Shown here: positions 1,575 through 54,657 of the stretch, piece by piece
Numbering within the stretch: position 1 is the first letter of the stretch
Layout of the letters: each line of letters starts with the position of its first letter
Origin: Collinsella sp.
GTDB lineage: Bacteria > Actinomycetota > Coriobacteriia > Coriobacteriales > Coriobacteriaceae
Direction: 5' to 3'
Assembly (NCBI GenBank): GCA_018365375.1
Contig: JAGZKE010000007.1
Location: 10,755 to 74,754, forward strand
DNA: 64,000 nucleotides
The notes under the pieces: generated by a model
Told to the model about the DNA's origin: nothing
The model's database searches: none
Seen by the model: the letters and a program-made list of their open reading frames with translations, nothing else
Program-made: the position numbers and the translations under genes

Positions 1575-1623
1575 TTTGCCCCGTCCCAAATTGGTTACTC
1601 TTTATTAGAAGGTCCGATATATC

Positions 1624-1690
1624 AGTTGCGGTGAAATACGGACTGAATTGCATCCATACAGGCCAAAACAGTCCGTATTCCACCGCAACT
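1624..1690. repeat. Palindromic element, AGTTGCGGTG family, copy 1
   Basis: 22-bp arms agttgcggtgaaatacggactg / cagtccgtattccaccgcaact with 1 mismatch; related copy at 61327. Confidence 0.85.
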
Positions 1691-1827
1691 TATCAAATAG
1701 GCCGACCGAAGTGGCCGAGTCCATCTGACGCCCACCTGCCATATTTGCCCTTTACCGATTTGCCGGGTCTTTGCGGCCCCATTGCCGATCACCCGTGCGA
1801 CAATGCGCCGGACGAGAAAGGAATCCG

Positions 1828-3354
1828 ATGGAATCGACTGATGTACTGGTAATTGGATCTGGCATTGCGGGCCTTTGTGCCGCCATCGAAGCGGCACGCA
1901 CGGGTGCAACCGTCACTGTGGCAAGCGCCGGCAAGACCATGAGTGGATCGAGCTTCTTCCCGGGTACCTGGGGCCTCGGCCTCATCGGTCCCGTCGACGA
2001 AGACGACGAGCAGGACCTCATCGACACCATCCTGGCCGTCGGCGGCGGCGTTGCCGACCCCGAACTCGTCCAAACGTTCGTCCACGGCATTCCCCAAGCG
2101 ATTGACTGGCTCGAGCAAGACCTGAGCGTTGAGCTCCAGCGTCCGCAAAGCGCCAAGAGTGCTCAACAAAAGCAATTTATCCCCTGCTTTGACCACAAGA
2201 CGCGCATGTGGCGCGGCCTCACCCGCAAGCCCCTTGAGGACGCTCTGACGACCTGGATCGAGTCGCTCGGCATTCGCCTGCTCCCCCGCCATGAGCTTAT
2301 CGACCTTGTTGAGGACACGAACGGCAGAATAACCGGAACCGTACTCTACGACCTTACCGAAAATCGAATCGTGCCCTTTGCTGCCAAGGCCACGATCATC
2401 GCAGCCGGTGGCACAGGCGGCCTGTTTGAGCGCAGCCTTACGTCGGCCGATGTGCTCAGCTCCTCGCAGGCCATCGCACTCGCGCACGGCGCATCGCTTA
2501 CTAATATAGAGTTCATGCAGATGATGCCCGGCTTCATAGAGCCCAAGCGCAACCTGGTCTTCAACGAGAAAACCTGGCGCTACGTACATGTAGACCAGCC
2601 GGCAGATATTGCCGACGACAAGCTGGACGACCTGCTCGAGCAGCGCTCTGGATATGGTCCTTTCACGTCACGCTTGGCCTCCCGCGCTATCGATCTTGCC
2701 ATCGATCAGGCAGGCGCCGAAGGCCTGGCGCTCCGCTACGACTTCCCCCGCGAGGATGTCCCAGAGTTTGTGCAGACATTTGCCACCTGGCTGCAAGACG
2801 AGCACGGCATCGCCCCGACTGACGAGATGCGCGTTGCGATGTATGCCCACGCCGCTAACGGCGGCATCAAGATCGATAAGACCGCGTACACGGGCGTTGA
2901 GGGCCTCTACGCTTGCGGCGAGGCGACAGGCGGCATGCACGGAGCCGACCGCATTGGTGGCTTATCAAGTGCCAACGGCATCGTGTTCGGGCGCATCGCG
3001 GGCGCATCGGCAGCCCTTGCAGCGCAGAAAGAGCCTAAGACAGCCCTGAAGGCGGATATCGCCCTCCCCCAGCACGGCATTGCCACAACAGATGCCGAGC
3101 GCCTGACCCGCAGCCTTAAGCACACGATGAGCACCTATTGCATGATCAACCGCACCGAGACGGGCCTATCCGAGGCTCTGCAACAGCTTGAAAGCCTGCA
3201 AGACAAGGCCATGGCGCTGAACAAGCCGCATGCCGATGACAGCGAGATCGCAGCCCTCGCCCGCCTACAGTCGCAGATTCAGCTGTCGATGGAGATGGTC
3301 AAAGCCATGCGCAAGCGAACCGAAAGTCTCGGATCGCACTATCGAGCAGACTAA
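1828..3354 (+). CDS. FAD-binding oxidoreductase (L-aspartate oxidase/fumarate reductase flavoprotein superfamily)
   Basis: N-terminal 'DVLVIGSGIAG', 'GLYACGE', 'HGADRIGGLS', C-terminal 'ESLGSHYR'; SD GAAAGGA before ATG 1828. Confidence 0.8.
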   Translation: MESTDVLVIGSGIAGLCAAIEAARTGATVTVASAGKTMSGSSFFPGTWGLGLIGPVDEDDEQDLIDTILAVGGGVADPELVQTFVHGIPQAIDWLEQDLSVELQRPQSAKSAQQKQFIPCFDHKTRMWRGLTRKPLEDALTTWIESLGIRLLPRHELIDLVEDTNGRITGTVLYDLTENRIVPFAAKATIIAAGGTGGLFERSLTSADVLSSSQAIALAHGASLTNIEFMQMMPGFIEPKRNLVFNEKTWRYVHVDQPADIADDKLDDLLEQRSGYGPFTSRLASRAIDLAIDQAGAEGLALRYDFPREDVPEFVQTFATWLQDEHGIAPTDEMRVAMYAHAANGGIKIDKTAYTGVEGLYACGEATGGMHGADRIGGLSSANGIVFGRIAGASAALAAQKEPKTALKADIALPQHGIATTDAERLTRSLKHTMSTYCMINRTETGLSEALQQLESLQDKAMALNKPHADDSEIAALARLQSQIQLSMEMVKAMRKRTESLGSHYRAD

Positions 3355-3476
3355 ATCGATTCTCACTTTGAGTTTGATCACAACTTCTCAACATGCATCG
3401 AGCCCCGTGAGCATAATTCTCATAAGGAGAGCACGTTTATGGGGCTTTAGCCGTGTTTCCCTAAGGGAATCACGGT

Positions 3477-3767
3477 GCAGTTTCCCCAACTTCGCGCCCC
3501 GACGGGTTCGACCCCATGCGAGGTCAACAAAAAAGCGACCAGCCTGGGCCGGTCACTTTAACAATCTTTGGGTGGGCCGTCAGGGGGTCAGCCTGCTGCG
3601 CAGGCGGTCGCTGCGGCGCTTCGCGCCTTGCGCGCTGCGCTGGCAAATGCTTACGCATTTCCTCAGCTCCGCACCCCGACGGGTTCGACCCCATGTGAGG
3701 TTAACAAAAAAAGCGACCAGTCTAAGCCAGTCGCTTTAACATGCTTTGGGTGGGCCGTCAGGGGGTC
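3477..3767. repeat. Tandem ~178-bp repeat downstream of tRNA-Lys, containing a duplicated tRNA 3' end
   Basis: 3477-3589 aligns with 3655-3767; gggtgggccgtcagggggtc occurs at 3570 and 3748. Confidence 0.85.
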
Positions 3768-3823
3768 GAACCCTGGACCTTGGGATTAAGAGTCCCCTGC
3801 TCTACCAACTGAGCTAACGACCC
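3751..3823 (-). tRNA. tRNA-Lys(CTT), CCA not encoded
   Basis: Reverse complement GGGTCGTTAGCTCAGTTGGTAGAGCAGGGGACTCTTAATCCC...GGTTCGACCCCCTGACGGCCCA, followed by CCC. Confidence 0.95.
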
Positions 3824-3866
3824 AAAGCTAAAGTCCGTTGTGGCGGACTTTAGAGGAGATATCGTG

Positions 3867-3942
3867 TGGTGGGCCGTCAGGGGGTCGAACCCTGGACCTT
3901 GGGATTAAGAGTCCCCTGCTCTACCAACTGAGCTAACGACCC
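3867..3942 (-). tRNA. tRNA-Lys(CTT), CCA encoded
   Basis: Body identical to the copy at 3751; ends in CCA. Confidence 0.95.
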
Positions 3943-3964
3943 GATATCAACACGAAGCAAGAAC

Positions 3965-4042
3965 TGGGGTGGGTAAAGGGACTCGAACCCTCGACCTACG
4001 GGACCACAACCCGTCGCTCTAGCCAACTGAGCTACACCCACC
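3965..4042 (-). tRNA. tRNA-His(GTG)
   Basis: GGTGGGTGTAGCTCAGTTGG...GGGTTGTGGTCCCG...GGTTCGAGTCCC...CCCCA; G-1 and C73 present. Confidence 0.95.
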
Positions 4043-4207
4043 GTGTCCTGTGCGCTTCGCGCTCGACTATTATTGCAAGGAACGCCACGCGATGCAAGCC
4101 CCAATTTTCAAGAATTTTGAAAAGAGTTTTTCGAGACCATTTCGAGCAAATCCCACCGGTTTCATAGGAGTAAACTTGCCCCACTGCAAATGCTCGAAAG
4201 GACCGGC

Positions 4208-8705: not shown

Positions 8706-11261
8706 CTAGAACGTCTGCTCGTAGTCGCTGTGCTTTTTGGCCGAACGCACCAGGAACTCCTGGTTGGTGTTGGTGCCCTTAAGACCCTTGATAAACGACG
8801 CAGCTGCGCGCTCGGTGTTGTTCATGCCGGCAAGAATGCGACGCAGGCCAAAGACAAACGGACGCATCTGCTCGTCAACCAACAGGTCCTCGTTACGCGT
8901 ACCGGAGGCAACGGGGTCGATAGCCGGGAAGATGCGGCGGTCGGCCAGGTCGCGGTCGAGCTTGAGCTCCATGTTGCCGGTGCCCTTGAACTCCTCAAAG
9001 ATGACCTCGTCCATCTTGGAGCCGGTGTCGATGAGGGCAGAGGCCAGGATGGTGAGCGAGCCACCGTTCTCGATATTGCGGGCTGCGCCCAGAAAGCGCT
9101 TGGGCGGATACAGTGCCGCCGAATCGACGCCGCCCGAAAGGATGCGGCCTGAGGCGGGCGCCGCCAAGTTGTAGGCGCGGGCAAGACGCGTGATGGAGTC
9201 GAGCACCACCACGACATCGCCGCCCAGCTCCACGATGCGCTTGGCGCGCTCGATGACGAGCTCTGCCACACGAGTGTGGTTGTCGGCGGGCATATCGAAG
9301 GTCGACGCCACAACCTCGCCCTTGATGGAACGCTGCATATCGGTGACCTCTTCGGGGCGCTCGTCGACGAGCAGGCAGATGAGGTGCACCTCGGGGTTGT
9401 TGATCGAGATGGACTGGCAGATCTTCTTGAGGATTGTGGTCTTGCCGGCCTTGGGCGGGGACACGATCAAGCCACGCTGACCCTTGCCGATCGGCGACAC
9501 GATGTCGATGGCGCGACCGGTAATGGAGTCCTTGCCATGCTCCATGCGCAGCGGCTCGTTGGGATAGACCGGGGTGAGGTCACCGAACTTGGGGCGGTTG
9601 CGAATCTGCTCGGGGTCTAGACCGTTGACGGTCGTGATTTTGGCGAGGCCGGCGCGCTTGTCGCCGCCGCGCGAAGGACGAAGCGAGCCCTCGATGACGT
9701 CGCCCGTGCGCAGACGCGCGGAGCGGATGAGGTAGGCGGGCACGAAGGCGTCGTCGTTGGACTTCATGTAGCCATGGGCATGGATGATACCGGAGCTGTC
9801 CGGACGAATCTGCAGGATGCCCTTGATGTCGCGGAAGCCCTCGGCCTTCGCGGCGGTGACGTAGATCTCCTCGACGAGCTCGGCTTTCTTCTTGCCGGTC
9901 GTCTCAATCTCGAACTCCTTGGCCTTCTCGCGCAGCTCGGCGACCTTCATGGCCGCGAGCTCCTCGCGCGAAAGCGTGGGCTCGGTGGGAGCGGCATTAC
10001 GCTCCTTGTTGCGCTGCTTGCGATCGCGCTGGCGGTTGCGGCGGTCGTCGTTGCGCTCGTCCTTGCGCTCGTTGCGTTCCTCGTTGCGCTTGTGCTGGCG
10101 ACGGTTGGAACGAGTGCCGTCTTCGGCCTCGGCGGGCGCGGCAACATCGGTTGTGGCGGCGTCGGCATTGACCGCAGCGGCTTCATTGGCCTCGGCGCCA
10201 GAATCGACCTGCGCTTCGACATCAGCCTGATGCTCGGACGCCTTGGCCTTAGCGGACTTCTTACGACCGCGCTTGGGCTTCTCGGACGCAGGCTGTTCGA
10301 CGTCTTGGGGCTCGGCGGCATCAGTCGATGCATCGGCGGTCGTCTCGTCGGAATCCTCGGACGTACCCTTCTTGGCAGCCTTAGCCTTGGACGTGCGCTT
10401 AACAGCAGTGCGACGGCTGCGACCGGGGCGGACGTCGGCGGGCTCGGCATCGGCGGGAGCGGCCTCGGAAGTCGCAGCATCCTGAACGGGTGCATCGGCA
10501 GCGGTTGCAGACTCGGCGGTCGCCGCAGCATCCCGAGCAGCTGCGGCTGCGGCTGCGGCCTTCTCTGCCTCGACGAAGGCCTTGGGCTTGCGACCGCGAC
10601 GGTGCGGGCGCAAAGCCGGATCGACAACGGGAACTTCGCTGGCCTCGACAGGCGCAGCGGGCTCAGTTGGCGATGCGCCCTCCCCTGCCGCGGAACGGAC
10701 CGAAGCCTCAGTGAGCTCGGGGGTTACCTGATCGGCAACCTGCTCGGCCTTAGCAGCCGTGCGACGGCGTGTGCGCGGTGCCGGCTTCTCGGTCGGTTGG
10801 TCGGCGGCAGGGGTCTCGGGCACAGACGGGGCTGCAAGCTCGGTCAGAGCCGCGGCCTCGCGCTCGGCAGCACGACGGCGGGCGCGCACCACCTGAGCCT
10901 CGCTAATCTGCGCCAACGCACGTGCCTGCGCGACCTCATCGGAAATCGGCGCCGAGGAGTCAGCTGCAACGGTGCGCTTGGCGCGCGTCGTGCGCGTGGT
11001 ACGGCGCTTGGGCTTGGTGACCTCCTCGCCGTCAGCAGCAGGCTTGGTCGTGCGGCGCGTACGCTTGGGCTTTGCCAGAGCAGCCTCCTCACCAGTTGCA
11101 GGCACGGCCTTCTCAGCCGCTGCAGGCGTAGGCGTCGAAGCAGCCTTAGGCGTCTCAGGAGCCGAGGCTTGCGCGGGCGCCGCGACCTGGTCCGACGCAA
11201 CCGGTGCAGCGGGAGCGGTCTGCGTCGTCGTTATTTCGTTTTCTTGCTGTTGATCAGACAC
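8706..11261 (-). CDS. rho: Transcription termination factor Rho with long N-terminal insertion
   Basis: 'PIGKGQRGLIVSPPKAGKT', 'DERPEEVTDM', 'EEFKGTGNME'; ~430 aa low-complexity N-terminus. Confidence 0.97.
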   Translation of the reverse strand: MSDQQQENEITTTQTAPAAPVASDQVAAPAQASAPETPKAASTPTPAAAEKAVPATGEEAALAKPKRTRRTTKPAADGEEVTKPKRRTTRTTRAKRTVAADSSAPISDEVAQARALAQISEAQVVRARRRAAEREAAALTELAAPSVPETPAADQPTEKPAPRTRRRTAAKAEQVADQVTPELTEASVRSAAGEGASPTEPAAPVEASEVPVVDPALRPHRRGRKPKAFVEAEKAAAAAAAARDAAATAESATAADAPVQDAATSEAAPADAEPADVRPGRSRRTAVKRTSKAKAAKKGTSEDSDETTADASTDAAEPQDVEQPASEKPKRGRKKSAKAKASEHQADVEAQVDSGAEANEAAAVNADAATTDVAAPAEAEDGTRSNRRQHKRNEERNERKDERNDDRRNRQRDRKQRNKERNAAPTEPTLSREELAAMKVAELREKAKEFEIETTGKKKAELVEEIYVTAAKAEGFRDIKGILQIRPDSSGIIHAHGYMKSNDDAFVPAYLIRSARLRTGDVIEGSLRPSRGGDKRAGLAKITTVNGLDPEQIRNRPKFGDLTPVYPNEPLRMEHGKDSITGRAIDIVSPIGKGQRGLIVSPPKAGKTTILKKICQSISINNPEVHLICLLVDERPEEVTDMQRSIKGEVVASTFDMPADNHTRVAELVIERAKRIVELGGDVVVVLDSITRLARAYNLAAPASGRILSGGVDSAALYPPKRFLGAARNIENGGSLTILASALIDTGSKMDEVIFEEFKGTGNMELKLDRDLADRRIFPAIDPVASGTRNEDLLVDEQMRPFVFGLRRILAGMNNTERAAASFIKGLKGTNTNQEFLVRSAKKHSDYEQTF

Positions 11262-11435: not shown

Positions 11436-11485
11436 TAGTCATTGGGGACGTTCTTAAACGACTATTCAAAAGGGACACTCTTTGG
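11436..11485. repeat. GGGAC-loop palindrome, family D
   Basis: tagtcattggggacgttcttaaacgacta plus gggacactc; near-identical to 32168. Confidence 0.8.
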
Positions 11486-11517: not shown

Positions 11518-11667
11518 AAACTATGGCGGTTTACTACGATGAATCGCTCAACCGCGACCACTCCGAAACTTGTTGAACTAAAACCGCAGGTAGATGCCTT
11601 GCACTTTTTAGCTAAAAGCCGGCGTGGTTGGAATATCTCAATTCATCGTAGTAAACCGGCATAGTTT
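11518..11667. repeat. Long inverted-repeat element with internal ACCTGCGGTTTT motif
   Basis: 27-bp arms aaactatggcggtttactacgatgaat / attcatcgtagtaaaccggcatagttt with 1 mismatch; aaaaccgcaggt at 11580. Confidence 0.85.
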
Positions 11668-11711
11668 CGTATTTCCAGCAGTTCCAAATTCGTCAATACG
11701 TCGGCGTTTGC

Positions 11712-13986: not shown

Positions 13987-14472
13987 ATGTTCTCAATCGG
14001 TCAACACGTCATTCATCCGGGTCAGGGAGTCTGCACCGTCGTCGGTTTTAGGGACGACACGCCGCAGCCCATGCTGCTGCTCGAGACCAAGCAGGGACAT
14101 GCGCAGACGATCCTCATGTACCCCGTGGCGCAGGCCGATCGTTTGCACGCCGCCATCTCTCAGCAAGATGCCGAGCACCTGCTGAGCCACTATGACGAGC
14201 TGGAGTGCGACACCTTCACCGAGCGCAACAGCTCACTTGAGGAGACGCACTTTAAGCAGCAGCTCAAGCTGGGTGCGCCCGAGACGGTCCGCGTGGCAAA
14301 GACCATGATGCACCGCATTCGCCAGGCCGAGGAAGCTGATAAAAAGCCCAGCTCCTACTACATGCGCGTACTCAAGGAAGCCAAGCGCCGCTCCATCGAG
14401 GAGTTCGCCGTGGCCTTGGGCGTCACCGAGGAGGCCGCCGAAGCTCGCCTAGCTCAAGCCGCCCTCAATTAA
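13987..14472 (+). CDS. CarD family RNA polymerase-binding regulator
   Basis: 'MFSIGQHVIHPGQGVCTV' matches the CarD/TRCF RID start; 161 aa; SD GGAGG. Confidence 0.8.
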   Translation: MFSIGQHVIHPGQGVCTVVGFRDDTPQPMLLLETKQGHAQTILMYPVAQADRLHAAISQQDAEHLLSHYDELECDTFTERNSSLEETHFKQQLKLGAPETVRVAKTMMHRIRQAEEADKKPSSYYMRVLKEAKRRSIEEFAVALGVTEEAAEARLAQAALN

Positions 14473-14515
14473 CCTGCCAAAAAGGGACAGGTTTATTTTG
14501 GCAGGTTTTATCTGG
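14471..14515 (+). repeat. REP-like palindrome, family A (left flank of RAYT)
   Basis: aacctgccaaaa-agggacaggtttat-tttggcaggtt then ttatctgg. Confidence 0.9.
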
Positions 14516-14828
14516 CCAAACATCAACAAACAATCAGTAAATGGTCGGGTGCTCCGTTTTGTTTAAGAGCGCCCGACCATTTTTCTATCGCCGTAAAAAT
14601 GCGTGAAGCCCATTTGCGATGACATCACGCAAGGGCCGTCCAGATCGACGTAACCAACGCCCGCATCCACAACAAGCGCGCCCGTCTTACTCAATTACCA
14701 TTAAAAAGCATCAATTTGAAAACGCAATTATATTTCGGCAGGTAGCAGCTATAGTCGGTGAACTGAATCTCGACAACCGAAGCCCCCGAATGAGGTATCT
14801 TCAGCCCATCCAAGCTAAAGGAGGGGCC

Positions 14829-15587
14829 ATGCCGAGAAAACCTCGTTCAAAGTCACCAACCGGTTATTTCCACGTCACGTTGCGTGGAAACGGAGGGCAA
14901 TTGCTGTTTGACGATGCCGAGGACCGAATCGCCATGCTTCAGATCCTCGATGCGATCCTCCCCAAACACAATATCGAGCTTATCGCTTGGTGTCTTATGG
15001 GGAGCCACATTCATCTACTCATCGACGATCCGGACGACCGTAAGAGCGACGCGATGCACGCGGTAGCCGTATCGTATGCGGGCAGGTACAATGCGCGGAC
15101 AGGGCATATCGGCCACGTGTTTCAGGAACGGTTTTGGGATTCGCCCATTAAGTCGGAAGTATATTTACTCGAAGCAATTCGATACATCCATCTGAATCCA
15201 CAAAAAGCAGGACTGGCGGCATATGACGAATATCCCTGGAGCAGCCATCGCGAGTATCTAATGAGCGCCAGGTCACGGCCGCATGTCACCGGCAGCGTTG
15301 TCGGTGTTTTATTCCCAACACCTCGCTCATACCTTAAGCTCATGGAAAGCACGCCGTCGCTTCCCTATCGCCCCAGCGCAACAGCCAAGGTTCGCGAGGA
15401 AGATCTATGCGAATTTGGCACGGCAATCGTGCAGAGTGTCGCAGGATGTGCTCCGACGGAACTTAAATCCGTCTCCAAGCCACTTCGCAATGAGGCGATT
15501 CTCGCACTTCGAAAACAAGGGCTAACGGTTAAGCAGGTTCAGCTGCTGACCGGACTGGGAACATGGATTATCAAGAACGCGTCCTAA
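14829..15587 (+). CDS. REP-associated tyrosine transposase (RAYT, Y1 HUH family)
   Basis: 'MPRKPR..YFHVTLRGN', HUH 'CLMGSHIHLL', 'GHVFQERF', catalytic Tyr 'YIHLNPQKAG', 'YPWSS'; SD AAAGGAGG. Confidence 0.9.
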   Translation: MPRKPRSKSPTGYFHVTLRGNGGQLLFDDAEDRIAMLQILDAILPKHNIELIAWCLMGSHIHLLIDDPDDRKSDAMHAVAVSYAGRYNARTGHIGHVFQERFWDSPIKSEVYLLEAIRYIHLNPQKAGLAAYDEYPWSSHREYLMSARSRPHVTGSVVGVLFPTPRSYLKLMESTPSLPYRPSATAKVREEDLCEFGTAIVQSVAGCAPTELKSVSKPLRNEAILALRKQGLTVKQVQLLTGLGTWIIKNAS

Positions 15588-15712: not shown

Positions 15713-15758
15713 CCCAGATAAAATCTACCAAAATAAACCTGTCCCAATTTGGCAGGTT
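15713..15758 (-). repeat. REP-like palindrome, family A (right flank of RAYT)
   Basis: Reverse complement aacctgccaaattgggacaggtttattttggtagattttatctggg. Confidence 0.9.
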
Positions 15759-16356
15759 AGGCCTGGAAGGTGTCGCGGTCGGGCGCGAAGGACTGCATGG
15801 CCGCGATGGTGCGGTCAAAGAGCTCGGGGAGCTCCCAGCCGAGCATCTCGGCGCCCTGCGAAATCACGTCGCGCGAGCAGCCGGCGGCAAAGCGCTTGTC
15901 CTTGAACTTCTTCTTGAGCGACTTGGCCGTAAAGTCCATGACGCTCTTGCTCGGACGCATGGTCACGGCAGCACCGATCAGGCCGGTGAGCTCGTCGCAA
16001 GCAAACAGGATCTTCTCCATCTGCAGCTCGGGCTTGGGCAGCGAGGTATTGAAATCGGACGTGTGCGTCTGAATAGCGCGAATGAGTTCGGGAGAGGCAC
16101 CCTCGCCCTCAAGGATCTCGGCCGCATAGATGGTGTGGTTCACGGGATCGTCCTCATGCTCCTCCCAATCCAGGTCGTGCAGCAAACCGACGATGCCCCA
16201 AAACTCCTCGTTCTCGGGGTCGAACTCGCGCGCAAAGTAGCGCATGGTGCCCTCGACCGTTTCGCCGTGGGTGATGTGGAACGGGTCCTTGTTGTGCTCG
16301 TTGAGCAATTCGAACGCACGGTCGCGGGTGATTCCGGCGGAAAGCGTCTGGGACAT
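15757..16356 (-). CDS. HDIG/HD-domain hydrolase
   Basis: 'GLLHDLDWE', 'DELTGLI', 'KSLKKKFKDKRFAAG'; SD GGAGG. Confidence 0.88.
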   Translation of the reverse strand: MSQTLSAGITRDRAFELLNEHNKDPFHITHGETVEGTMRYFAREFDPENEEFWGIVGLLHDLDWEEHEDDPVNHTIYAAEILEGEGASPELIRAIQTHTSDFNTSLPKPELQMEKILFACDELTGLIGAAVTMRPSKSVMDFTAKSLKKKFKDKRFAAGCSRDVISQGAEMLGWELPELFDRTIAAMQSFAPDRDTFQA

Positions 16357-16482: not shown

Positions 16483-16528
16483 CGCAGATAAAACCTGCCA
16501 AAATAAACCTGTCCCTTTTTGGTAGGTT
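16483..16528 (-). repeat. REP-like palindrome, family A, third copy
   Basis: gcagataaaacctgccaaaataaacctgtccctttttggtaggtt. Confidence 0.9.
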
Positions 16529-17814
16529 TAGGGGCGGACCTGGCCGGTGCCTCGGAGCTTGTATTTGTAGGTGGTGAGGGCCTCGGCGGCAAAGGGGCCG
16601 CGGGCGTGGAGCTTTTGGGTCGAGATGCCGATCTCGGCGCCCAGGCCAAACTCGCCGCCGTCAGTGAAGCGAGTGCTGGCGTTGGAGTACACGGCCGAGG
16701 CATCGACCGCATCCAGGAAGCGCTCGCAAGCATCCGTGTCCTCGGCAACGATGGCCTCGGAGTGCATCGTGCCGTAGCGATTGATGTGTGCGATGGCCTC
16801 GTCCTCGTTTGCCACGACCTTCATGCTCATCTCGAGCGCCAGATACTCGCGACCCCAGTCCTCCTCAGTCGCGGCAACGTAGTCATCGCCCTCGGCAAGC
16901 CCGGCGTCGGCGCATGCGGCGCACGTGGCCTCGTCGCCGTGAATGAGCACGCCGTGGTCATGCAGCACGGCCACGACCGCGGGCAAAAACGCATCGGCCA
17001 CGGCACGGTCGACCAGCAGCGACTCGACGGCATTGCACACGCCCACGCGCTGTGTCTTAGCGTTGACGATAATATTGAGCGCTTTATCGAAGTCGGCGGA
17101 TTCATGCACGTAGATGTGGCAGTTACCCGTGCCCGTCTCGATCACCGGAACGAGCGACTCGCGCACGCAGCGCTGGATCAGGCCCGCACCGCCACGCGGA
17201 ATGAGCACATCGACGACGCCGCGGAGCTTCATGAGCTCGCCAGTGGCCTCGCGGTCGGTGGACTCGATCATCGAGATAGCCTCGCGCGGGAAGCCCTTGG
17301 TCTCGAGCGCATCGGCCAGCAGCTCAGAAATCATGGCGCACGAGTGATAGGCCAGCGAGCCGCCGCGCAGAATGCAGGCGTTGCCGGTGCGGATGCAGAT
17401 GCCCGCGGCGTCGGCCGTCACGTTGGGGCGCGCCTCGTAGACCATGGCAACCAGGCCCAGCGGCACACTCACGCGCGTAAGGTCCACGCCACTCGCAAGC
17501 ACACGGTGATCGAGCACGCGGCCCACGGGATCGGGCAGCTCGGCAAGCTTCTCCAGGCCGGCGGCCATGCTCTCAACGCGCTCGGGCGTCAGCAGCAAGC
17601 GGTCGAGCAATCCGGCCGAGGTGCCTGCGTCACGCGCAGCGGACATATCGAGCTCGTTGGCGGCGACGATGGAGTCGACACCGTTGCGCAGTGCTGCGGC
17701 CATGGCGCGCACGGCCTCCTGGCGCTGCTCGTCGCTCGCCGTGGCAAGCGAGGCCGACGCTGCCTTGGCGGCAACGGCAAGATCGTGGACATACGTGGCT
17801 ATATCGACCGACAT
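16528..17814 (-). CDS. proA: Gamma-glutamyl phosphate reductase
   Basis: 'YEARPNVT', 'GNCHIYV', 'NASTRFTDGGEFGLGAEIGISTQKLHARGP'. Confidence 0.97.
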   Translation of the reverse strand: MSVDIATYVHDLAVAAKAASASLATASDEQRQEAVRAMAAALRNGVDSIVAANELDMSAARDAGTSAGLLDRLLLTPERVESMAAGLEKLAELPDPVGRVLDHRVLASGVDLTRVSVPLGLVAMVYEARPNVTADAAGICIRTGNACILRGGSLAYHSCAMISELLADALETKGFPREAISMIESTDREATGELMKLRGVVDVLIPRGGAGLIQRCVRESLVPVIETGTGNCHIYVHESADFDKALNIIVNAKTQRVGVCNAVESLLVDRAVADAFLPAVVAVLHDHGVLIHGDEATCAACADAGLAEGDDYVAATEEDWGREYLALEMSMKVVANEDEAIAHINRYGTMHSEAIVAEDTDACERFLDAVDASAVYSNASTRFTDGGEFGLGAEIGISTQKLHARGPFAAEALTTYKYKLRGTGQVRP

Positions 17815-19345: not shown

Positions 19346-19396
19346 CAAAGGAGTGTCCCCACCTGCCGGCACAATAGAAACGTCCCCAAGTGCCGG
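19346..19396. repeat. GGGAC-loop palindrome, family D
   Basis: aaggagtgtcccc...gccggcac...acgtccccaagtgccgg; matches 32230 and 54610. Confidence 0.8.
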
Positions 19397-19406: not shown

Positions 19407-19570
19407 TCGCCACGAAAGCGGCCCATCTACTACGTTTCACCCGCATGGCCCAACCAGATGCCATAAATAAAGAAAACCGCAGGCGTTCTACCTGCGGTTT
19501 TCTTTTTGCAATTCTTGGCATGGTCACCGATAGCCTATTAAACGTAGTAGATGGGCCGTTTTCGTGGCGA
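19407..19570. repeat. Long inverted-repeat element with central ACCTGCGGTTTT palindrome
   Basis: 31-bp arms with 1 mismatch; centre aaaaccgcagg-cgttcta-cctgcggtttt. Confidence 0.9.
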
Positions 19571-19659
19571 CCAGCTCGGACATAAGCGCGGCGGGGCAAA
19601 GTTACCCTGGTAATTTCGCCCCACGTGCATTGCAGATCGAAGGCGCCCGGCGTCGAGGC

Positions 19660-20858: not shown

Positions 20859-20897
20859 AAAATGATCCGTTTTCCTCCGTCCCCTTCGGATCATTTT
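20859..20897 (-). repeat. GGGAC-loop palindrome, family F, containing the pncB stop codon
   Basis: Reverse complement AAAATGATCCG-AAGGGGACGGAGGAAAA-CGGATCATTTT. Confidence 0.75.
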
Positions 20898-23003: not shown

Positions 23004-23076
23004 TGGAGACGAAGGGAGTCGAACCCTCGGCCTCTGCCATGCGACGGCAGCGCTCTCCCAACTGAGCTACGTCCCC
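23004..23076 (-). tRNA. tRNA-Ala(CGC)
   Basis: GGGGACGTAGCTCAGTTGGGAGAGCGCTGCCGTCGCATGGCAG...GGTTCGACTCCCTTCGTCTCCA; G3:U70 pair. Confidence 0.95.
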
Positions 23077-23129: not shown

Positions 23130-23219
23130 AGTCTTTTTGGGACGGGGCTGTTTTGACTACTTTTCAAACGTCCGAGCCACCCCGATGATTTTTCTGGGAC
23201 GGGGATTAAAAATCATCGG
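23130..23219 (+). repeat. GGGAC-loop palindromes, family C (two units)
   Basis: agtctttttgggacggggctgttttgact and ccgatgatttttctgggacggggattaaaaatcatcgg; the same pair is inverted at 35827-35916. Confidence 0.85.
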
Positions 23220-27381: not shown

Positions 27382-27420
27382 AAACCACTACAGGGGGGCA
27401 GGCACCTTTGTGGTGGTTTT
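27382..27420 (+). repeat. GGGAC-loop palindrome, family B (degenerate)
   Basis: aaaccactacaggggggcaggcacctttgtggtggttt. Confidence 0.85.
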
Positions 27421-27783: not shown

Positions 27784-27822
27784 AAACCACCACAAAGGTG
27801 TCTGTCCCCTTTGTGGTGGTTT
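27784..27822 (-). repeat. GGGAC-loop palindrome, family B
   Basis: aaaccaccacaaaggtgtctgtcccctttgtggtggttt. Confidence 0.9.
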
Positions 27823-29362: not shown

Positions 29363-29402
29363 AAACCACCACAAAGGCGCCTGTCCCCCTTTGTGGTGGT
29401 TT
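29363..29402 (-). repeat. GGGAC-loop palindrome, family B
   Basis: aaaccaccacaaaggcgcctgtccccctttgtggtggttt. Confidence 0.9.
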
Positions 29403-30320: not shown

Positions 30321-30358
30321 AAACCACCACAAAGGTGCCTGTCCCCTTTGTGGTGGTT
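30321..30358 (-). repeat. GGGAC-loop palindrome, family B, overlapping the pckA stop
   Basis: aaaccaccacaaaggtgcctgtcccctttgtggtggtt. Confidence 0.9.
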
Positions 30359-32166: not shown

Positions 32167-32279
32167 CTAGTCATTGGGGACGTTCTTAAATGACTAGTCG
32201 TTGGGGACACCCTTGAACAGGCAACAGCCAAGGAGTGTCCCCAGATGCCGGCACTTGGGGACGTTCCCAAAGTGCCGGC
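32167..32279. repeat. Cluster of four GGGAC motifs, family D
   Basis: ctagtcattggggacgttcttaaatgactag / ggggacaccc / ggagtgtcccc / gccggcacttggggacgttcccaaagtgccggc. Confidence 0.85.
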
Positions 32280-33850
32280 TACAGCGGCAGGCCTTGGCCG
32301 AGCATGGCAATGGCGCTCATGAGGACCAGCATGCCGGCGGCGTAGGGCAGCACCGCGCCCAGAAGCTCGGCGTCCTTACCGCGCACGTGCACGGCGGCAA
32401 GGCCAATGGCGAGGGTCTGCGGCGAAATCATCTTACCGGCGGCGACACCCAGGGCGTTCAGCGCGACCATCCAGTAGTCACTCACACCCAGCGCCGAAGC
32501 GGCCTGGCTCTGAATGGGACCAAACAGCATGCCCGAGGACGTGCCCGAACCGGTCACGAACGCACCGACGGCACCGATCCACGGAGCCAGAATCGGGTAC
32601 AGCCCACCGGCGACGGCAATGCAAAACGCACTGATTGACGAGATCATGCCCGCATAGCCCATCACCTTGGCGCAGCCCAGCACCGAAAGCATCGTGATTA
32701 CCGTCGGCATCATCTGCTTGACGGTCGCGGCCAGCACCTCGCCCATCAGACGTGGCGAAGCGCCCTGAATCGCACCGCCGATAAACGCGGCCAGGAAGAT
32801 CCAAACACCCGGTGTGTTGATCCACGAAAACGTAAGCGTACCGGGGTTCTCGCCGCAATACACCTGCACGTGGCTCGCAAACGGCGCGAGCGCGGCGTGC
32901 ACGACGGGAACCAGGTTGGAGGTACCCAGCAGCAGCACAAAAATCAGGATGAAGCACGACCAGGCAGAAAGCGCCGACTTAACGGTGAGCTGTTCGCCGG
33001 CCTCGATATTCATATGGAAGCGCGCGTCCAGGTGACCGGACTTCTCGGCGCGCATGGCAAGCGCGGCGGTCAGTGCGAGCGACACGATGGAGCCCACGAC
33101 TACGGCCAGCTCGGGACCCACAAACATGGCAACGACCAGGGCCGCGACAACAAACGATACGCCGGAGAGCAACGCCACGCCGGCGACGCCGTGCAGGCGC
33201 TCGGCAACGCTTGCAACATTGCCCTGGTCATCGGCGACACGGCCCGCAACCAGCACAATAAGCAGCGGCATCGCCACAAAGAAGGGCGCGAGCTGCACCA
33301 GCTGAACGGTCGCCAGGTGCAGGGAATTCAGACCCACCAGGTCGGCAACGGACACCGTGGGGATGCCAATGGAGCCGTAGGGCGTGGGCACGCCGTTGGC
33401 CAGCAGGCAAATGAGCACGGCAGGCACGGCCTCAAAACCAAGGCCCGCGAGCATGCCGGCGGGAATGGCAACGGCGGTACCAAAGCCGGCCATGCCCTCC
33501 ATAAAACCGCCGAAACACCAGGCCACGAGCAGCGCCAGCAGACGACGATCGCTGCTGATGGAGGTGATCATACTGCCGATCACGTCCATGGCACCCGTGC
33601 GCACGCACAGGTTATACGTGAACACCGCGGCGATAATTACGAGCACGATGGGCCACAGGGCCATCAAAAAGCCCTCGAGCGAGGCCGTGGCTATCTGCGC
33701 CGCCGGCAAATGCCACCACGCAAAGGTGAGCACGCACGAAAGGGCGAACGAACCAATAGCGGCCTTCCAAGCTGGCCATTTAAAGCACAGCAGCATCACG
33801 ACGAGCCAGATGATCGGCACAAGAGCCAGCAAAAACGCAGCGACATCCAT
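32279..33850 (-). CDS. lctP: L-lactate permease
   Basis: 'FGGFMEGMAGFGTAVAI', 'GAFVTGSGTSS..LFG', 'GKMISPQ'; many TM helices. Confidence 0.9.
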   Translation of the reverse strand: MDVAAFLLALVPIIWLVVMLLCFKWPAWKAAIGSFALSCVLTFAWWHLPAAQIATASLEGFLMALWPIVLVIIAAVFTYNLCVRTGAMDVIGSMITSISSDRRLLALLVAWCFGGFMEGMAGFGTAVAIPAGMLAGLGFEAVPAVLICLLANGVPTPYGSIGIPTVSVADLVGLNSLHLATVQLVQLAPFFVAMPLLIVLVAGRVADDQGNVASVAERLHGVAGVALLSGVSFVVAALVVAMFVGPELAVVVGSIVSLALTAALAMRAEKSGHLDARFHMNIEAGEQLTVKSALSAWSCFILIFVLLLGTSNLVPVVHAALAPFASHVQVYCGENPGTLTFSWINTPGVWIFLAAFIGGAIQGASPRLMGEVLAATVKQMMPTVITMLSVLGCAKVMGYAGMISSISAFCIAVAGGLYPILAPWIGAVGAFVTGSGTSSGMLFGPIQSQAASALGVSDYWMVALNALGVAAGKMISPQTLAIGLAAVHVRGKDAELLGAVLPYAAGMLVLMSAIAMLGQGLPL

Positions 33851-34029
33851 GGGTAGAAACTCCTTGGTACCGCGCAAGCGGCATCGGGGGGGTCACAAAA
33901 CTTCAACAGGATACCGCACGTTTACCGACAAATTACAGCCGCCCGCCGAAATTATTGAACAACCTGTTCAAAAACACGAATGGACGCCACCGCGACTATA
34001 CTAGAGCGCAGCAAGAGAAAGGAATCGCC

Positions 34030-35826: not shown

Positions 35827-35916
35827 CAAATGATTTTTAAATCCCCGTCCCAGAAAAATCATTTGATGGGCAGAAGGGCAAAAGTAGCCAAAAAAGCCCC
35901 GTCCCAAATTAGCTAC
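35827..35916 (-). repeat. GGGAC-loop palindromes, family C (two units)
   Basis: caaatgatttttaaatccccgtcccagaaaaatcatttg and gtagccaaaaaagccccgtcccaaattagctac. Confidence 0.85.
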
Positions 35917-37101: not shown

Positions 37102-38703
37102 ATGAACCAGATCCTTCTCTTTATCGGCCTCGTCATTATTCTGTGCCTGACCATCAAACCTGTCGGAAAAAAGCTCCCCTTCCCCACCCTGCTCATCTTT
37201 ATCGTGCTCGGCATGCTGCTGGGCGTCAACGGCCCGGCGCGCATCGACTTTAGCGACTATGCGCTCACCGAAACCGTCTGCAGCACGGCGCTGCTGTTCA
37301 TCATGTTCTACGGCGGCTTTAACACCAACATCGACCGCGCCAAACCTATCGCCGTGCCCGCGGTGCTGCTGAGCACCCTCGGCGTCGTCATCACCGCTGG
37401 CATCACCGGCGTGTTCGCGCATTTTGTGCTGGGCTTCGACTGGATCGGCGGCCTTCTGCTGGGATCGGTCGTGGCATCCACCGACGCGGCGAGCGTCTTT
37501 AGCGTGCTGCGCGAGCACAGCCTGTCGCTGAGAGGTGGCACCGACTCGCTGCTCGAGGTGGAATCGGGCTCCAACGACCCCGTCGCCTACATGCTCACCG
37601 CGGTGCTCGCTACCCTCGCGGCCGGCGGCGACGTTAACATCCCCGTGCTGCTGGCCAAGCAAATCATCCTAGGCGTGGGCTTGGGCATTGTCATCGGCTG
37701 GGCATCGGGCCGTCTGATCGAGCGCGCGCATGCAACAGCCGAGGGGGCGCAGACCATCTTCTTGTTCGCCGTGGCCATCGTCGCCTACGCGCTGCCGAGC
37801 TACCTGGGCGGCAACGGCTTTTTGGCAGTGTACCTTGCCGGCATTGTGCTGGGCGCAAGCGACATCACCGGCAAAGTCGGGCTGGCGCACTTCTTCGACA
37901 CCCTCACCGAGATGGCAGAGATGACCATCTTCTTCTTGCTAGGCCTGCTCGTGACGCCCGCCCGTCTGCCGCAAATGCTGCTGCCGGGCCTGGCACTCAT
38001 GGCGTTTATGCTCTTTGTGAGCCGCCCCATCGCCGTCGGTCTGCTGTTGGCGCCCTTTAAGACGAACCCTCGCCAGGTTGCACTCGTAAGCTGGGCGGGC
38101 CTGCGCGGCGCGGCTTCGGTCGTCTTTAGCCTCTTTGCCGTTGTGGCCGGTGTTCCCGGTGGGCACGACCTGTTTGACCTGGTCTTTGTGATTGCCGTGT
38201 CGAGCATTGTGGTGCAGGGCTCGCTGCTGCCGGCGGTGGCAAAGAAGCTCGATATGAACGATGCAGAAGGCGACGTGCGCCGCACGTTTAACGATTACCG
38301 CGACGAGGACGGCATGTCGTTCGTTAAGCTCAAGGTGGACGCGGGCCATCCGTTTGCCGGACACTCGCTCGCGGACATTGGCAGCGCCACAGATATGCTC
38401 GTTATCCTGGTGCTGCGCGACGGAGCGCACCCGGTACTGCCCAACGGTGATACCGTCATCGAGGAAGGCGACCTGCTGGTGATGGCCGCCCCAACGTTTG
38501 AAGAGCGCGCCGAGGTTACGCTGCGCGAGGTCACCGTGACTCCCCACGGTCGCCTGGCCGGCCAGCGCCTGCGCGATGTGCCGCAAGGCAAGCATCCGTT
38601 TATTGTGGTGATGCTCAAGCGCGAAGGCCAGACGATCATCCCCGATGGCAACACCCTAATATACGCCGGCGACGAAGCCGTCATCGCCACACTGGCATCG
38701 TAG
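37102..38703 (+). CDS. K+/H+ antiporter (NhaP2/CvrA family) with two TrkA-C domains
   Basis: 'STDAASVFSVLR', 'LEVESGSNDP', 'WAGLRGA'. Confidence 0.92.
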   Translation: MNQILLFIGLVIILCLTIKPVGKKLPFPTLLIFIVLGMLLGVNGPARIDFSDYALTETVCSTALLFIMFYGGFNTNIDRAKPIAVPAVLLSTLGVVITAGITGVFAHFVLGFDWIGGLLLGSVVASTDAASVFSVLREHSLSLRGGTDSLLEVESGSNDPVAYMLTAVLATLAAGGDVNIPVLLAKQIILGVGLGIVIGWASGRLIERAHATAEGAQTIFLFAVAIVAYALPSYLGGNGFLAVYLAGIVLGASDITGKVGLAHFFDTLTEMAEMTIFFLLGLLVTPARLPQMLLPGLALMAFMLFVSRPIAVGLLLAPFKTNPRQVALVSWAGLRGAASVVFSLFAVVAGVPGGHDLFDLVFVIAVSSIVVQGSLLPAVAKKLDMNDAEGDVRRTFNDYRDEDGMSFVKLKVDAGHPFAGHSLADIGSATDMLVILVLRDGAHPVLPNGDTVIEEGDLLVMAAPTFEERAEVTLREVTVTPHGRLAGQRLRDVPQGKHPFIVVMLKREGQTIIPDGNTLIYAGDEAVIATLAS

Positions 38704-38930
38704 TGACTAGGAGGTAGCTAATTTAGGACGAAGAGATCAAGCGCCTAGAGAACCTCATGTCTTCGCTCGCAGATTTGGATTTGCCTGAGGAGTAAGGTCA
38801 CCCCTCCCCCATGTAACCATCCTGTAAATCATAGCGGCGTAGTCGAGTTTTACCGCGATGCGGTCGCGCCCGGCGCTCCACTGTGCTAAAGTATCCCGAA
38901 CGTTCAAACGACTACGAGGGGAACTAGAAG

Positions 38931-40055
38931 ATGGCACGTGTGCACAACTTCTCAGCTGGCCCGGCCGCGCTGCCTACAAGCGTGCTCGCCGAGATCGCCG
39001 ACGAGATGATGGACTACCGCGGTTGCGGCATGTCCGTGCTCGAGATGAGCCATCGATCTAGCATGTACCAGCAGATCATCGACGACGCCGAGGCAACCCT
39101 GCGCCGTCTGCTGAACATCCCCGACAACTACCGTGTCCTGTTTTTGCAGGGCGGCGCCACGCTGCAGTTTGCGGGCATCCCCATGAACCTCATGCGCCGC
39201 GGGCGCGCCGGCTACATCGTGACCGGCAACTTTGCCAACAAGGCATACAAAGAAGCCGCCAAGTACGGCGAGGCCGTGCTGCTCGCAAGCTCCGAGAGCA
39301 CCAATTTCGACCGCATTCCCACCATGGCCGACATCAACGCGCGCATTGCCGCCGAGGCCGCGGGCGACGGGCTCGACTACGTCTACATCTGCCAGAACAA
39401 CACCATCTTTGGCACCATGTACCACGAGCTGCCTAACTGTGGCGATGTGCCGCTGTTCGCCGATGTCTCGAGCTGCTTCCTGTCGCAGCCGCTCGACGTC
39501 GAGCGCTACGGACTCATCTACGCCGGCGCGCAGAAAAACGCCGGCGCCGCGGGTGTGACCGTGGTCATCGTGCGCAACGACCTCATCGCAGATGGCCCCG
39601 CCTTTGCGCAGACGCCGCAGTACATGGACCTCAAGACCCAGGCCGCCAAGGGCTCCATGCTCAACACGCCCAACACCTTTGGCATCTACGTGTGCGGCAA
39701 GGTGTTCCGTTGGGTTGAGCAGACCGGCGGACTTGCCGCCATGGCCGAGCGCAACTGGGCCAAGGCCAACCTGCTCTATGACCTGCTCGAACACAGCGAG
39801 CTGTTCCATAGCACCACGCAAGCCGAAAGCCGCTCCATCGCCAACGTCACCTTCCGTACCGGCGACGCCGAACTCGACGCGGCCTTTGTCGCAGGCGCGG
39901 CCAAGCACCAGATTCAAAACGTCAAGGGCCATCGCCTGGTGGGCGGTATGCGCGCCAGCGTCTACAACGCCGTAACCATGGAAGACGTGCAGGCACTGGC
40001 CTCGTACATGAAGGACTTCGAAGCGCAGCATAGTTTGAGTCCGCGATCTAACTAG
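38931..40055 (+). CDS. serC: Phosphoserine aminotransferase
   Basis: 'NFSAGPA', 'EMSHRS', 'YAGAQKN', 'KGHRLVGGMRAS'. Confidence 0.97.
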   Translation: MARVHNFSAGPAALPTSVLAEIADEMMDYRGCGMSVLEMSHRSSMYQQIIDDAEATLRRLLNIPDNYRVLFLQGGATLQFAGIPMNLMRRGRAGYIVTGNFANKAYKEAAKYGEAVLLASSESTNFDRIPTMADINARIAAEAAGDGLDYVYICQNNTIFGTMYHELPNCGDVPLFADVSSCFLSQPLDVERYGLIYAGAQKNAGAAGVTVVIVRNDLIADGPAFAQTPQYMDLKTQAAKGSMLNTPNTFGIYVCGKVFRWVEQTGGLAAMAERNWAKANLLYDLLEHSELFHSTTQAESRSIANVTFRTGDAELDAAFVAGAAKHQIQNVKGHRLVGGMRASVYNAVTMEDVQALASYMKDFEAQHSLSPRSN

Positions 40056-44749: not shown

Positions 44750-44786
44750 ACCACCACAAAGGGGACAGGCACCTTTGTGGTGGTTT
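44750..44786 (+). repeat. GGGAC-loop palindrome, family B
   Basis: accaccacaaaggggacaggcacctttgtggtggt. Confidence 0.9.
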
Positions 44787-46809: not shown

Positions 46810-46812
46810 CCA

Positions 46813-46915
46813 AGGTAGATTTTTGGGACATGCCTAAAAATCTACCTTTTTGTTTTGGCAGCGGGGAATGCCCTGGTCACAGGGGTAGATCGTAAGACAT
46901 GTCCCAATAATCTAC
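46813..46915. repeat. GGGAC-loop palindromes, family E (inverted pair between convergent genes)
   Basis: aggtagatttttgggacatgcctaaaaatctacct and gtagatcgtaagacatgtcccaataatctac. Confidence 0.8.
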
Positions 46916-51092: not shown

Positions 51093-51106
51093 GAAAGGAT
51101 ATTGCA

Positions 51107-51472: not shown

Positions 51473-51535
51473 CGACCAACCACGGTACCAGCGCGGCCTG
51501 CACCCAAGCCGCAAATACGGGGAAAGGAACCCACC

Positions 51536-51754: not shown

Positions 51755-51785
51755 CCCAGGTTTACGCCAACCCGCAAGGCCGCGC

Positions 51786-51831
51786 TTGACGCGGCCTTTG
51801 CTCGCGAAATTGTATGAGCGAATGTTCATAC
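51786..51831 (+). promoter_or_regulatory. Third SmtB/ArsR operator (internal, before the ATPase)
   Basis: gtatgagcgaatgttcatac at 51812-51831; TTGACG at 51786. Confidence 0.7.
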
Positions 51832-51854
51832 GTTCAAATGGGAGGATACGAGTC

Positions 51855-53807: not shown

Positions 53808-53827
53808 CGTTCGTGGGCTGTCCGGCC

Positions 53828-53946
53828 GGGACCGGGCTTGGTTTTGAAAACGTCCTCGCGCATGAGGCCCGTCTTTCCTGCTCCTGCGGAGCAACGGAAA
53901 GACGGGCCTCGCGCTGCGGAGTGTTTTCAAAACCAAGCCCGGCCCC
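53828..53946. repeat. ~120-bp nested hairpin element
   Basis: Perfect 20-bp outer arms and 15-bp inner arms; apex tgctcc-tgc-ggagca. Confidence 0.9.
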
Positions 53947-54068
53947 GACCTGCGTTGACACAGCTGGTGGTTCTTGGGCATCGCTTACTGACGGGGTTCC
54001 TTGTCTGAATTGGACTTAGTTGGTGGTGCTACTGATCCCGGTCGCTGTCCCGCGCCGCTGCGGGAGTG

Positions 54069-54458
54069 CTAGTCGGTCATTATTGGCGCCGAAGCACCGT
54101 CCCGTCCCAGCATCGCCCTCAGCTTCTCGAAGCTTTCCTCGCTTAGGCAGTGCTCCATGTGGCAGCCCTCTTGCGACGCGACCTCAGCCGAAACACCCGC
54201 ATCCTCTAGCAGCCCCACGAAAAAGCAGTGACGCTCCCACATTTGGCGCGCGACCTCCAGACCACGCTCCGTCAGATGAACGTCGCGCTTGCCCATTTCG
54301 ACATAGCCGTTGCTTTCCAACGTCGCCATGGCCTTGGAAACGCTCGCCTTGGTTACGCCGAGGTGCTCCGCAACGTCGATCGAGCGCACGATGCCCTGAC
54401 GTTCCGACAGAACGTAGATCGATTCGAGATAGTCTTCTCCGGATTCACGTAGGGCCAT
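54069..54458 (-). CDS. DtxR/MntR family metal-dependent regulator
   Basis: 'SGEDYLESIY', 'VRSIDVA', 'SVSKAM', 'ERH', 'GCHMEHCLS'. Confidence 0.93.
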   Translation of the reverse strand: MALRESGEDYLESIYVLSERQGIVRSIDVAEHLGVTKASVSKAMATLESNGYVEMGKRDVHLTERGLEVARQMWERHCFFVGLLEDAGVSAEVASQEGCHMEHCLSEESFEKLRAMLGRDGASAPIMTD

Positions 54459-54596
54459 GGGCCGCCTTTCGCGATGATTGCTAGTTAGCCTTTGGATACT
54501 TTTCACAGCTTACTTTACCGCAAAAGTTGCCCATGTCTTACTACTTTGCCTAAAAGTTAGCCGTGTTTCACAAAACGTGCGGGACGAAAACAAAAT

Positions 54597-54657
54597 GGGG
54601 ACGCCCCGCAAGGAGTGTCCCCAGGTGCCGGCAGAAAAGGAGCGTCCCAAAGTGCCG
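54597..54657. repeat. GGGAC-loop palindrome cluster, family D
   Basis: ggggacgccccgcaaggagtgtccccaggtgccggcagaaaaggagcgtcccaaagtgccg. Confidence 0.8.

Follow-up and report, generated by a model that had tools for sequence, protein, structure and literature searches.

The locus and its transposase

The DNA analysed here, called the window throughout, is a stretch of 64,000 nucleotides from a Collinsella sp. genome (assembly GCA_018365375.1, contig JAGZKE010000007.1, positions 10,755 to 74,754; G000:C5:10755-74754 in our numbering), the genome itself, G000, having 2.15 Mb in 54 contigs and being 99.96% complete. Between carD and a gene for an HD-domain protein it carries a gene for a transposase of the HUH tyrosine (Y1) type, which is bracketed by two inverted copies of a short hairpin, at 14471 on the plus strand and at 15722 on the minus strand, sharing 52 nt at 88% identity. 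Hairpins of the same design with other arms lie in other gaps of the window, and they are the subject of this study together with the enzymes whose genes they flank. In outline the system is already known, as TIRtron/TIRYT (PMC3733652) and as subclass 2.1 of the TnpA-Y1 transposases (PMC6006769), and it is not that of the repetitive extragenic palindromes (REPs) with a GTAG foot.

The most probable start of the Y1 gene is 14829, behind a GGAGG ribosome-binding site, rather than the first ATG of its open reading frame (ORF), 14619. Its product of 252 amino acids has the HuH motif H60-I-H62, the tyrosine Y119 within YIHLNP, and a C-terminal helix-turn-helix (HTH) at about 217-251 with its recognition helix at 245-251. 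H60, H62 and Y119 are invariant across 24 aligned proteins, the HuH motif reading SHIH in the window allele and NHIH in close relatives, and Pfam Y1_Tnp is matched; HTH_23 was matched in 8 of the 24 aligned relatives and not in the window protein. The AlphaFold2 model (mean predicted confidence, pLDDT, 87.5) places the C-terminal helices at 217-229, 234-241 and 245-249, its top Foldseek match is 4ER8, the TnpA-REP of Escherichia coli, and against the NCBIfam model REP_Tyr_transpos the protein scores 67.2 bits, below the cut-off of 80. Proteins 97-99% identical to it occur in Collinsella and C. aerofaciens.

Hairpin families in the window and the genome

Of the 87 GGGAC sites in the window, 12 belong to stems with a score of at least 8, against a mean of 0.22 and a maximum of 2 in 100 dinucleotide shuffles; genome-wide the proportion in hairpins is 114 of 2719 (4.2%) versus 0.20-0.72% for 19 other permutations of the pentamer, so that the enrichment of GGGAC in hairpins, proposed in a preliminary description of this DNA, stands above both shuffled and permuted controls. 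Anchored matching found about 236 copies in 11 families in G000 and a single one in the reversed genome, the families having 39 (A), 34 (D1), 32 (B), 24 (G), 22 each (D2 and F), 17 (C2), 15 (I), 11 (E) and 10 each (C1 and H) copies; for G, H and I none was called within the window. All sites listed in the preliminary description were recovered with the arms and tails ascribed to them, including the GGGGC core at 27382, except that the copy at 1577, described as partial, is a half element that forms no hairpin and the one at 23130 forms an imperfect one. The six stem families that had been distinguished do differ in their stems, but two of them are each two families, C comprising C1 (atgatt...) and C2 (gtagct...) and D comprising D1 (tagtcat) and D2 (gccggcac), and each of the four flanks an enzyme clade of its own.

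In the unit of about 33-39 bp two arms, each with an A/T run on its inner side, enclose GGGAC, a single base and a GTCCC that is either perfect or degenerate, with A runs at the start of the arms and T runs at their end. GGGAC is constant, as had been noted, but rather than simply sitting in the loop it forms the 5' half of a palindrome at the centre of the unit, and the dyad geometry of the repeats is fixed, the axis falling exactly on the base 3' of GGGAC in 167 of the 236 genomic copies. Full GGGAC-N-GTCCC pairing is found in family G and in 14 of the 125 enzyme-repeat clades compared below; the motif GGGGWSAS is present exactly in B and H and with one mismatch in A, and in the clades exactly in 17 of 125 and within one mismatch in 66 of 125. 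On the 5' side of the arms the 11 family profiles show no conserved foot, GT[AG]G or other. The earlier view of a REP-like system of a non-GTAG kind with a constant tag and family-specific "addresses" is supported.

By our own gene calls, on which all placement figures rest, 227 of 230 copies away from contig edges are intergenic, and copies occupy 45 of the 168 gaps between convergent genes, 114 of the 820 between tandem genes and 13 of the 184 between divergent ones. A stop codon is at most 10 bp away in 80 of 207 scorable copies, 61 of them in the sense of the gene and 19 antisense. The majority of copies are single; among 48 close pairs, 21 are head-to-head pairs of one family. Family A copies show a sharp outer edge and retain about 20 nt of the inner flank at the right end of the enzyme gene. 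Three RNA runs of another strain, coarse as they are, gave no RNA end at the hairpins among the ends listed; this strain lacks enzyme A and shows zero depth across 14803-15403. An Rfam search returned four tRNAs and nothing else. These tRNA genes lie at 3751-4041 and 23004-23076, and some of the GGGAC matches in these two stretches belong to the tRNAs and do not represent repeats.

Pairing of families with enzyme clades

A Y1 paralog is present in 195 of 201 genomes of the genus. In 163 fetched loci (duplicates included) and two of G000, clustered at 75% identity, each cluster has one flanking family, namely A, B, C1, C2, E, F, H or a further family J, whereas D1 and D2 flank two enzyme sub-clades at one locus; of 32 clade-A loci, counting duplicates, 29 have the upstream A copy. 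An enzyme for family G was met in one of 401 genomes, with a query picked for the same type of centre, and that genome also has 22 A copies. Ten of the 11 families of G000 thus flank an enzyme clade of their own in this or a related genome, among them B to F, for which such paralogs had been suggested. That each paralog has one family, as had also been suggested, is true of the pangenome and not of G000, in which only A and H have their enzyme. The three Y1 paralogs of this genome share about 33% identity, and there is no near-identical duplicate; the one at C46:28074-28826 has inverted H copies, two on each side, and the one at C5:9352-10083, just upstream of the window, has lost both HuH and Tyr and has no flanking repeats. 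Paralogs of the latter type, again without flanking repeats, are widespread at a fixed locus (L016, L022-L026, L046-L049 and others). Ser stands in place of the catalytic Tyr at 18 of the 21 loci that could be scored, and some loci, that of G000 among them, have a decayed HuH; this repeat-free clade is possibly domesticated or decaying.

The enzyme genes occur patchily, as accessory alleles at fixed loci, and the repeats persist without them and vary between strains. While matches to A (22-44) and B (13-42) occur in all 190 repeat-bearing genomes, 40 of these have enzyme A and 11 enzyme B. Elsewhere, viral contigs yielded 8 loci, and 15 of 72,556 plasmid records match, weakly. One subclass 2.1 gene (L342, G261:C1) lies between the two copies of an inverted duplication of 166 bp, which contains a tRNA gene as well as the GGGAC hairpin.

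Paired upstream and downstream dyads were found for 41 of 60 protein clusters in a first set, for 51 of 72 new clusters in a second set of 98 loci, drawn from another two families in the order, and for 33 of 69 metagenomic or viral clusters in a third (76 full-length of 88 loci), and 90 of 125 enzyme-repeat clades have an exact GGGAC core; these figures are partly conditioned, since the repeat picker imposed the dyad axis and required at least two of five core matches. The picker is wrong for a few clades (e.g. L042, L439, L420, L507, L508 and L513), of which L042, L439 and L420 were dropped from the independent-pair tests, and a 108-clade subset with clean cores served for the widened-motif and distant-pair analyses.

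Variation among strains

Synteny was compared in 14 regions and G000 (G236, whose region is the first 14 kb, was left out). In agreement with what had been anticipated, the copies differ among the 15 genomes at 15 of the 17 gaps that hold repeats, be it in family, number or orientation, part of this variation being decay past the calling threshold. At the carD-HD-proA locus there are two alleles, one with A copies, enzyme A and an inverted HD gene and the other with B copies and enzyme B. Six genomes have no enzyme at the B allele and one B copy, versus two around the gene in enzyme-B alleles; the single copy is what a deletion between the gene's ends would leave. Centres flip between the arms at 27784, 29363 and 23196, and in some relatives remnants of A arms precede B at 27382. 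Template switching in palindromes also yields paired changes of arms, and for this reason such changes at orthologous sites were not counted in favour of folding.

In one relative, G128, a 1454-bp IS3-type insertion sequence (IS; rve_2, HTH_21 and HTH_28 domains, TG...CA ends, 3-bp duplication) sits at the dyad centres of B copies, in three insertions including L174:2248-3702 (window-equivalents 15750, 27784 and 30321), one copy being itself interrupted, which is reminiscent of the targeting of REPs by IS elements.

Covariation of enzyme domains with arm and centre

We compared 125 natural enzyme-repeat pairs. In a fixed-register test the distance between enzyme cores tracks that between repeat centres (r 0.23, p 0.0002). 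Every 4-residue window was then scanned with core and linker distance controlled, using an arm distance tolerant of 1-2 nt shifts. With this measure the association with the arms peaks at residues 243-249 in two separate sets of Coriobacteriia (partial r 0.25 in one and 0.32 in the other, both with a family-wise p of 0.001), and in the third, metagenomic set in the first helix of the HTH, at 237-241 (p 0.007). In the 108 clean-core clades, both with tree distance as a covariate and when distant pairs alone are taken, the association is strongest at residues 243-250 for the arms and at 76-80 and 97-103 for the centres (p 0.002-0.004). By alignment, residue 77 corresponds to R78 and residues 98-101 to W94-Q95-P96-R97 of E. 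coli TnpA-REP, in which R78 and R97 contact bases of the REP (PMC3479197) and W94/Q95 belong to the GTAG-recognition region (PMC6006769, PMC8266576). In statistical terms, then, the arm appears to covary with the recognition helix of the HTH and the centre with two segments of the core.

On a finer scale, the second position of the recognition helix goes with one arm base. Among N-GAC arms of the first two sets the associations are Gly-T in 20 of 20, Asn-A in 7 of 9 and Ser-G in 7 of 10, and for the base before G-N-C[AG] in all sets, a motif widened after the data had been seen, they are 23 of 25, 6 of 8 and 8 of 13, respectively. Contacts of Asn with adenine and of Gly with the methyl group of thymine are chemically ordinary. 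On the core tree the Gly and Asn states recur in scattered places, with 15 and 14 changes respectively, and in the sister clades L407/L404 and L394/L436 helix residue and arm base swap jointly. Such a Gly-T, Asn-A, Ser-G code is at present no more than statistical, and the split at the level of domains is better supported than the code at the level of single residues.

Proposed mechanism and its alternatives

We consider it probable that the hairpins are dispersed terminal repeats of TIRYT (subclass 2.1) genes, each enzyme clade having likely spread a family of its own by a predicted two-part reading, in which the C-terminal HTH would read the family-specific arm and the nuclease core the GGGAC centre. 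The single-stranded repeat would fold, the HTH would bind the duplex stem (or else the genomic duplex, whose base pairs are the same), and the core would dock on the GGGAC top via the surface used by E. coli TnpA-REP; a cut and strand transfer immediately outside the 5' arm, as deduced from the HUH family, would copy the unit, often beside stop codons. A new family that does not cross-react would then arise when the recognition helix changes, and a deletion between two flanking copies would remove the gene and leave an orphan family. A bolder version is put forward tentatively, its chance being somewhat short of even: subclass 2.1 may be modular and re-addressable, residues of the helix, mainly at position 2, setting the arm while the core reads GGGAC, so that one substitution would give an orthogonal family, and the Collinsella enzymes may be rare accessory alleles that service repeats in every strain of the complex.

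Several observations weigh against this proposal. Family I had no enzyme among the loci examined, and copy number barely tracks the presence of the enzyme, the means being 30.6 with and 29.5 without for family A, the three copies at the locus removed (p 0.06), and 30.4 and 28.3 for family B (p 0.08), with kin that are not independent in both; either little spreading goes on today, or the genes for the enzymes move more quickly than repeats are lost to decay. Among the relatives only replacements, deletions and flips were seen, and no clean filled/empty junction, cut site or target duplication. At fixed register, the arm distance gave no HTH-arm signal by Mantel test or per-column mutual information, and the shift-tolerant distance that the signal needs was adopted only after the data of the second set had been seen. 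In tests on independent pairs the Gly/Asn change has the right direction 4-4.4 times on average and essentially never the opposite one, but with 5-7 pairs the median p is above 0.05, and Ser is weaker than Gly/Asn. Of three advance predictions none held in full: an aromatic residue going with a C-rich arm failed in new data (n=3, p 0.39), the strict N-GAC rule for Gly failed with the family G enzyme, which has Ser where Gly was predicted, and another prediction was half borne out, the peak of the metagenomic set falling in the HTH but at 237-241 with the strict Gly-T rule at 0 of 3.

These failures of single-residue predictions also agree with the rival that survives best, although we judge it unlikely: the pairing would be real and the HTH-arm covariation mere hitch-hiking, the end of the gene and the downstream repeat being swapped jointly by recombination with no binding code. 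The last ten codons encode the recognition helix and lie within about 0-160 nt of the downstream copy, and 26 of 32 fixed differences between the D1 and D2 enzymes, which share one locus, come after residue 145. However, the centre is equally close to the gene end and yet covaries with the core, not with the HTH; the upstream copy matches as well; and the signal persists among distant pairs, with Gly and Asn states scattered over the core tree.

It is quite improbable that the protein is a regulator or nucleoid factor of double-stranded DNA with one HTH per arm, its nuclease secondary and the repeats its operators. The fixed two-fold geometry and the conserved paralog without the catalytic Tyr would fit such a role, but the copies prefer gene 3' ends and convergent over divergent gaps, the degenerate paralog is the one without flanking repeats, the cognate enzymes retain HuH and Tyr, and most genomes have no enzyme for most families. 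Still less probable is an ordinary IS-like transposon of gene and two ends, with the dispersed hairpins as solo ends or miniature inverted-repeat elements left after excisions: inverted flanking, a sharp outer edge and the single copy that follows loss of the gene speak for it, whereas each examined clade sits at one chromosomal locus, the paralogs of G000 are far from identical and plasmid matches are few and weak. Finally, intrinsic terminators homogenised by gene conversion, with the transposase gene nearby by accident, would account for intergenic copies close to stop codons and for the A and T runs of the arms, but leave the one-to-one pairing with clades, the inverted flanking in 125 clusters and the constant core unexplained, are not matched by the RNA ends listed in the three coarse runs of another strain, and as an origin are contradicted and hardly worth any credence.

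Relation to known systems

Like the TIRtrons/TIRYTs of Di Nocera, De Gregorio and Rocco (2013), with their GGGGWSAS motif and dispersed families of terminal inverted repeats (TIRs; PMC3733652), the Collinsella loci have a Y1 HUH gene between inverted repeats with a GGGGWSAS-like motif, unrelated to GTAG REPs, and moderately abundant dispersed families, some self-complementary, occurring as singles, dimers and clusters. In that paper TIRs are given as ends and few genomes have TIR families, while in Collinsella 11 families stand side by side; moreover, the ends here are hairpins of fixed geometry centred on the base after GGGAC, the families go one-to-one with clades, and arms and centre covary with different domains. 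Quentin et al. (2018) equated subclass 2.1 with TIRYT and described it as the largest non-IS group of Y1 transposases, in 14.9% of species, without REP-like flanks and with the DNA recognition of the HTH left open (PMC6006769). For RAYT (REP-associated tyrosine transposase) Group 1, Bertels et al. (2017) reported flanking 16-mers of about 12 copies that were not counted as REP-associated (PMC5581495), and a later account has REPINs (REP-derived hairpin-forming elements) decaying once the RAYT is lost and regards the genes of Group 1 as single-copy and co-opted by the host (10.1101/2021.07.10.451892). Our enzymes share with subclass 2.1 and Group 1 the YIHLNP and HuH motifs, a length of about 240-250 amino acids, a conserved Ser after the core, the C-terminal HTH, low copy number and divergent paralogs, but differ from the published picture in having hairpin families of 10-39 copies that covary with the recognition helix.

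With REPs, BIMEs (bacterial interspersed mosaic elements), REPINs and RAYT groups 2 and 3 they have in common intergenic hairpins near gene 3' ends, some head-to-head pairs among mostly single copies, and the same fold (4ER8; PMC3479197, PMC8266576), as well as a family-specific enzyme, orphan families after enzyme loss and IS insertion into repeats. Unlike these, they have no GTAG foot, carry a constant tag at the top of the hairpin and an extra HTH domain, number 10-39 copies per family rather than hundreds, and have an enzyme below the REP_Tyr_transpos cut-off. The HUH/Y1 core and subterminal hairpins recall IS200/IS605 (TnpA-IS608, ISDra2), from which the absence of identical multicopy elements and of an adjoining tnpB, the inverted matching ends and the longer protein set them apart. 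Among the papers listed by a search of mostly non-subscription literature there was no account of these repeats in Collinsella or of an HTH-arm code, and the figures or supplements of the TIRYT papers may show the hairpin layout.

Features of the window

Table 1. Positions of the transposase gene, the repeats and the associated HD-domain gene (window coordinates)
Feature	Position	Strand	Evidence or remark
TIRYT / TnpA-Y1 subclass 2.1-type HUH tyrosine transposase, clade A	14829..15587	+	Pfam Y1_Tnp, AlphaFold2, Foldseek
Family A hairpin, left terminal repeat of the Y1 gene	14471..14507	+	Overlaps carD stop codon
Family A hairpin, right terminal repeat (inverted)	15722..15758	-	Overlaps stop codon of HD-domain gene
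HD-domain gene between two A copies	15757..16356	-	Opposite orientation in B-allele genomes
Family A hairpin	16491..16529	-	At proA stop codon
Half family C2 element (left arm and core)	1577..1598	-	Most relatives have no copy
Family D1 hairpin and truncated second unit	11436..11484	+	
Family D2 unit and terminal unit	19346..19396	-	
Family F hairpin	20859..20897	-	Intact in 3 of 15 genomes
Imperfect family C2 hairpin	23130..23158	+	
Family C1 hairpin	23182..23219	+	Inverted centre in most relatives
Degenerate family B hairpin	27382..27419	+	GGGGC core
Family B hairpin	27784..27822	-	Flipped in 3 relatives; F inverted pair instead in G205; IS-interrupted in G128
Family B hairpin	29363..29402	-	Centre oppositely oriented in 13 of 13 covering relatives (12 called; G128 copy degenerate)
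Family B hairpin	30322..30358	-	Source of the phosphoenolpyruvate (PEP) carboxykinase stop codon in G000
Mosaic array of D1 and D2 units	32167..32279	+	
Family C1 hairpin	35827..35865	-	
Family C2 hairpin	35884..35916	-	
Family B hairpin	44750..44784	+	Found in every covering genome
Family E hairpin, first of head-to-head pair	46812..46848	+	
Family E hairpin, second of head-to-head pair	46885..46915	-	
Family D2 unit and terminal unit	54597..54660	-	

Some neighbours of the repeats differ among the relatives. At the PEP carboxykinase gene (30322-30370) relatives have a stop codon of their own and about 20 more bases before the hairpin; the lactate permease gene at 32279-33877, adjoining a D2 unit, is present in only 4 of the 15 compared genomes; and at a gene end with a half C2 element (about 38700-38960) 6 of 14 relatives have insertions of 17-22 kb and one has 2.6 kb. 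Inverted-repeat elements of another kind, longer (about 100-170 bp) and without relation to the GGGAC families, lie at 11530-11700, 19410-19580 and 1620-1700, and in these gaps relatives show several alternative alleles. The ORF for the Rho termination factor (8706-11261) encodes 851 amino acids with a long N-terminal extension, the domains beginning at about residue 434.

Significance

What is new here is a pangenome map of the repeats together with a two-domain recognition model, suggested by the statistical covariation of arm with HTH and of centre with core across 125 pairs. The largest non-IS group of Y1 transposases thereby gains 125 natural enzyme-substrate pairs, a model of two-part recognition and candidate single-residue swaps. 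The model would explain how a dozen families coexist without cross-talk, how they arise and how they are orphaned, and as far as sequence comparison can tell it points to a set of orthogonal enzymes that would cut single-stranded DNA. The repeats also point to hot spots of gene inversion, gene gain and IS insertion in a common genus of the human gut. If the bolder version of the proposal is true, mobile DNA in Collinsella would be maintained at the level of the pangenome, with rare enzyme alleles servicing repeat populations that the strains share.

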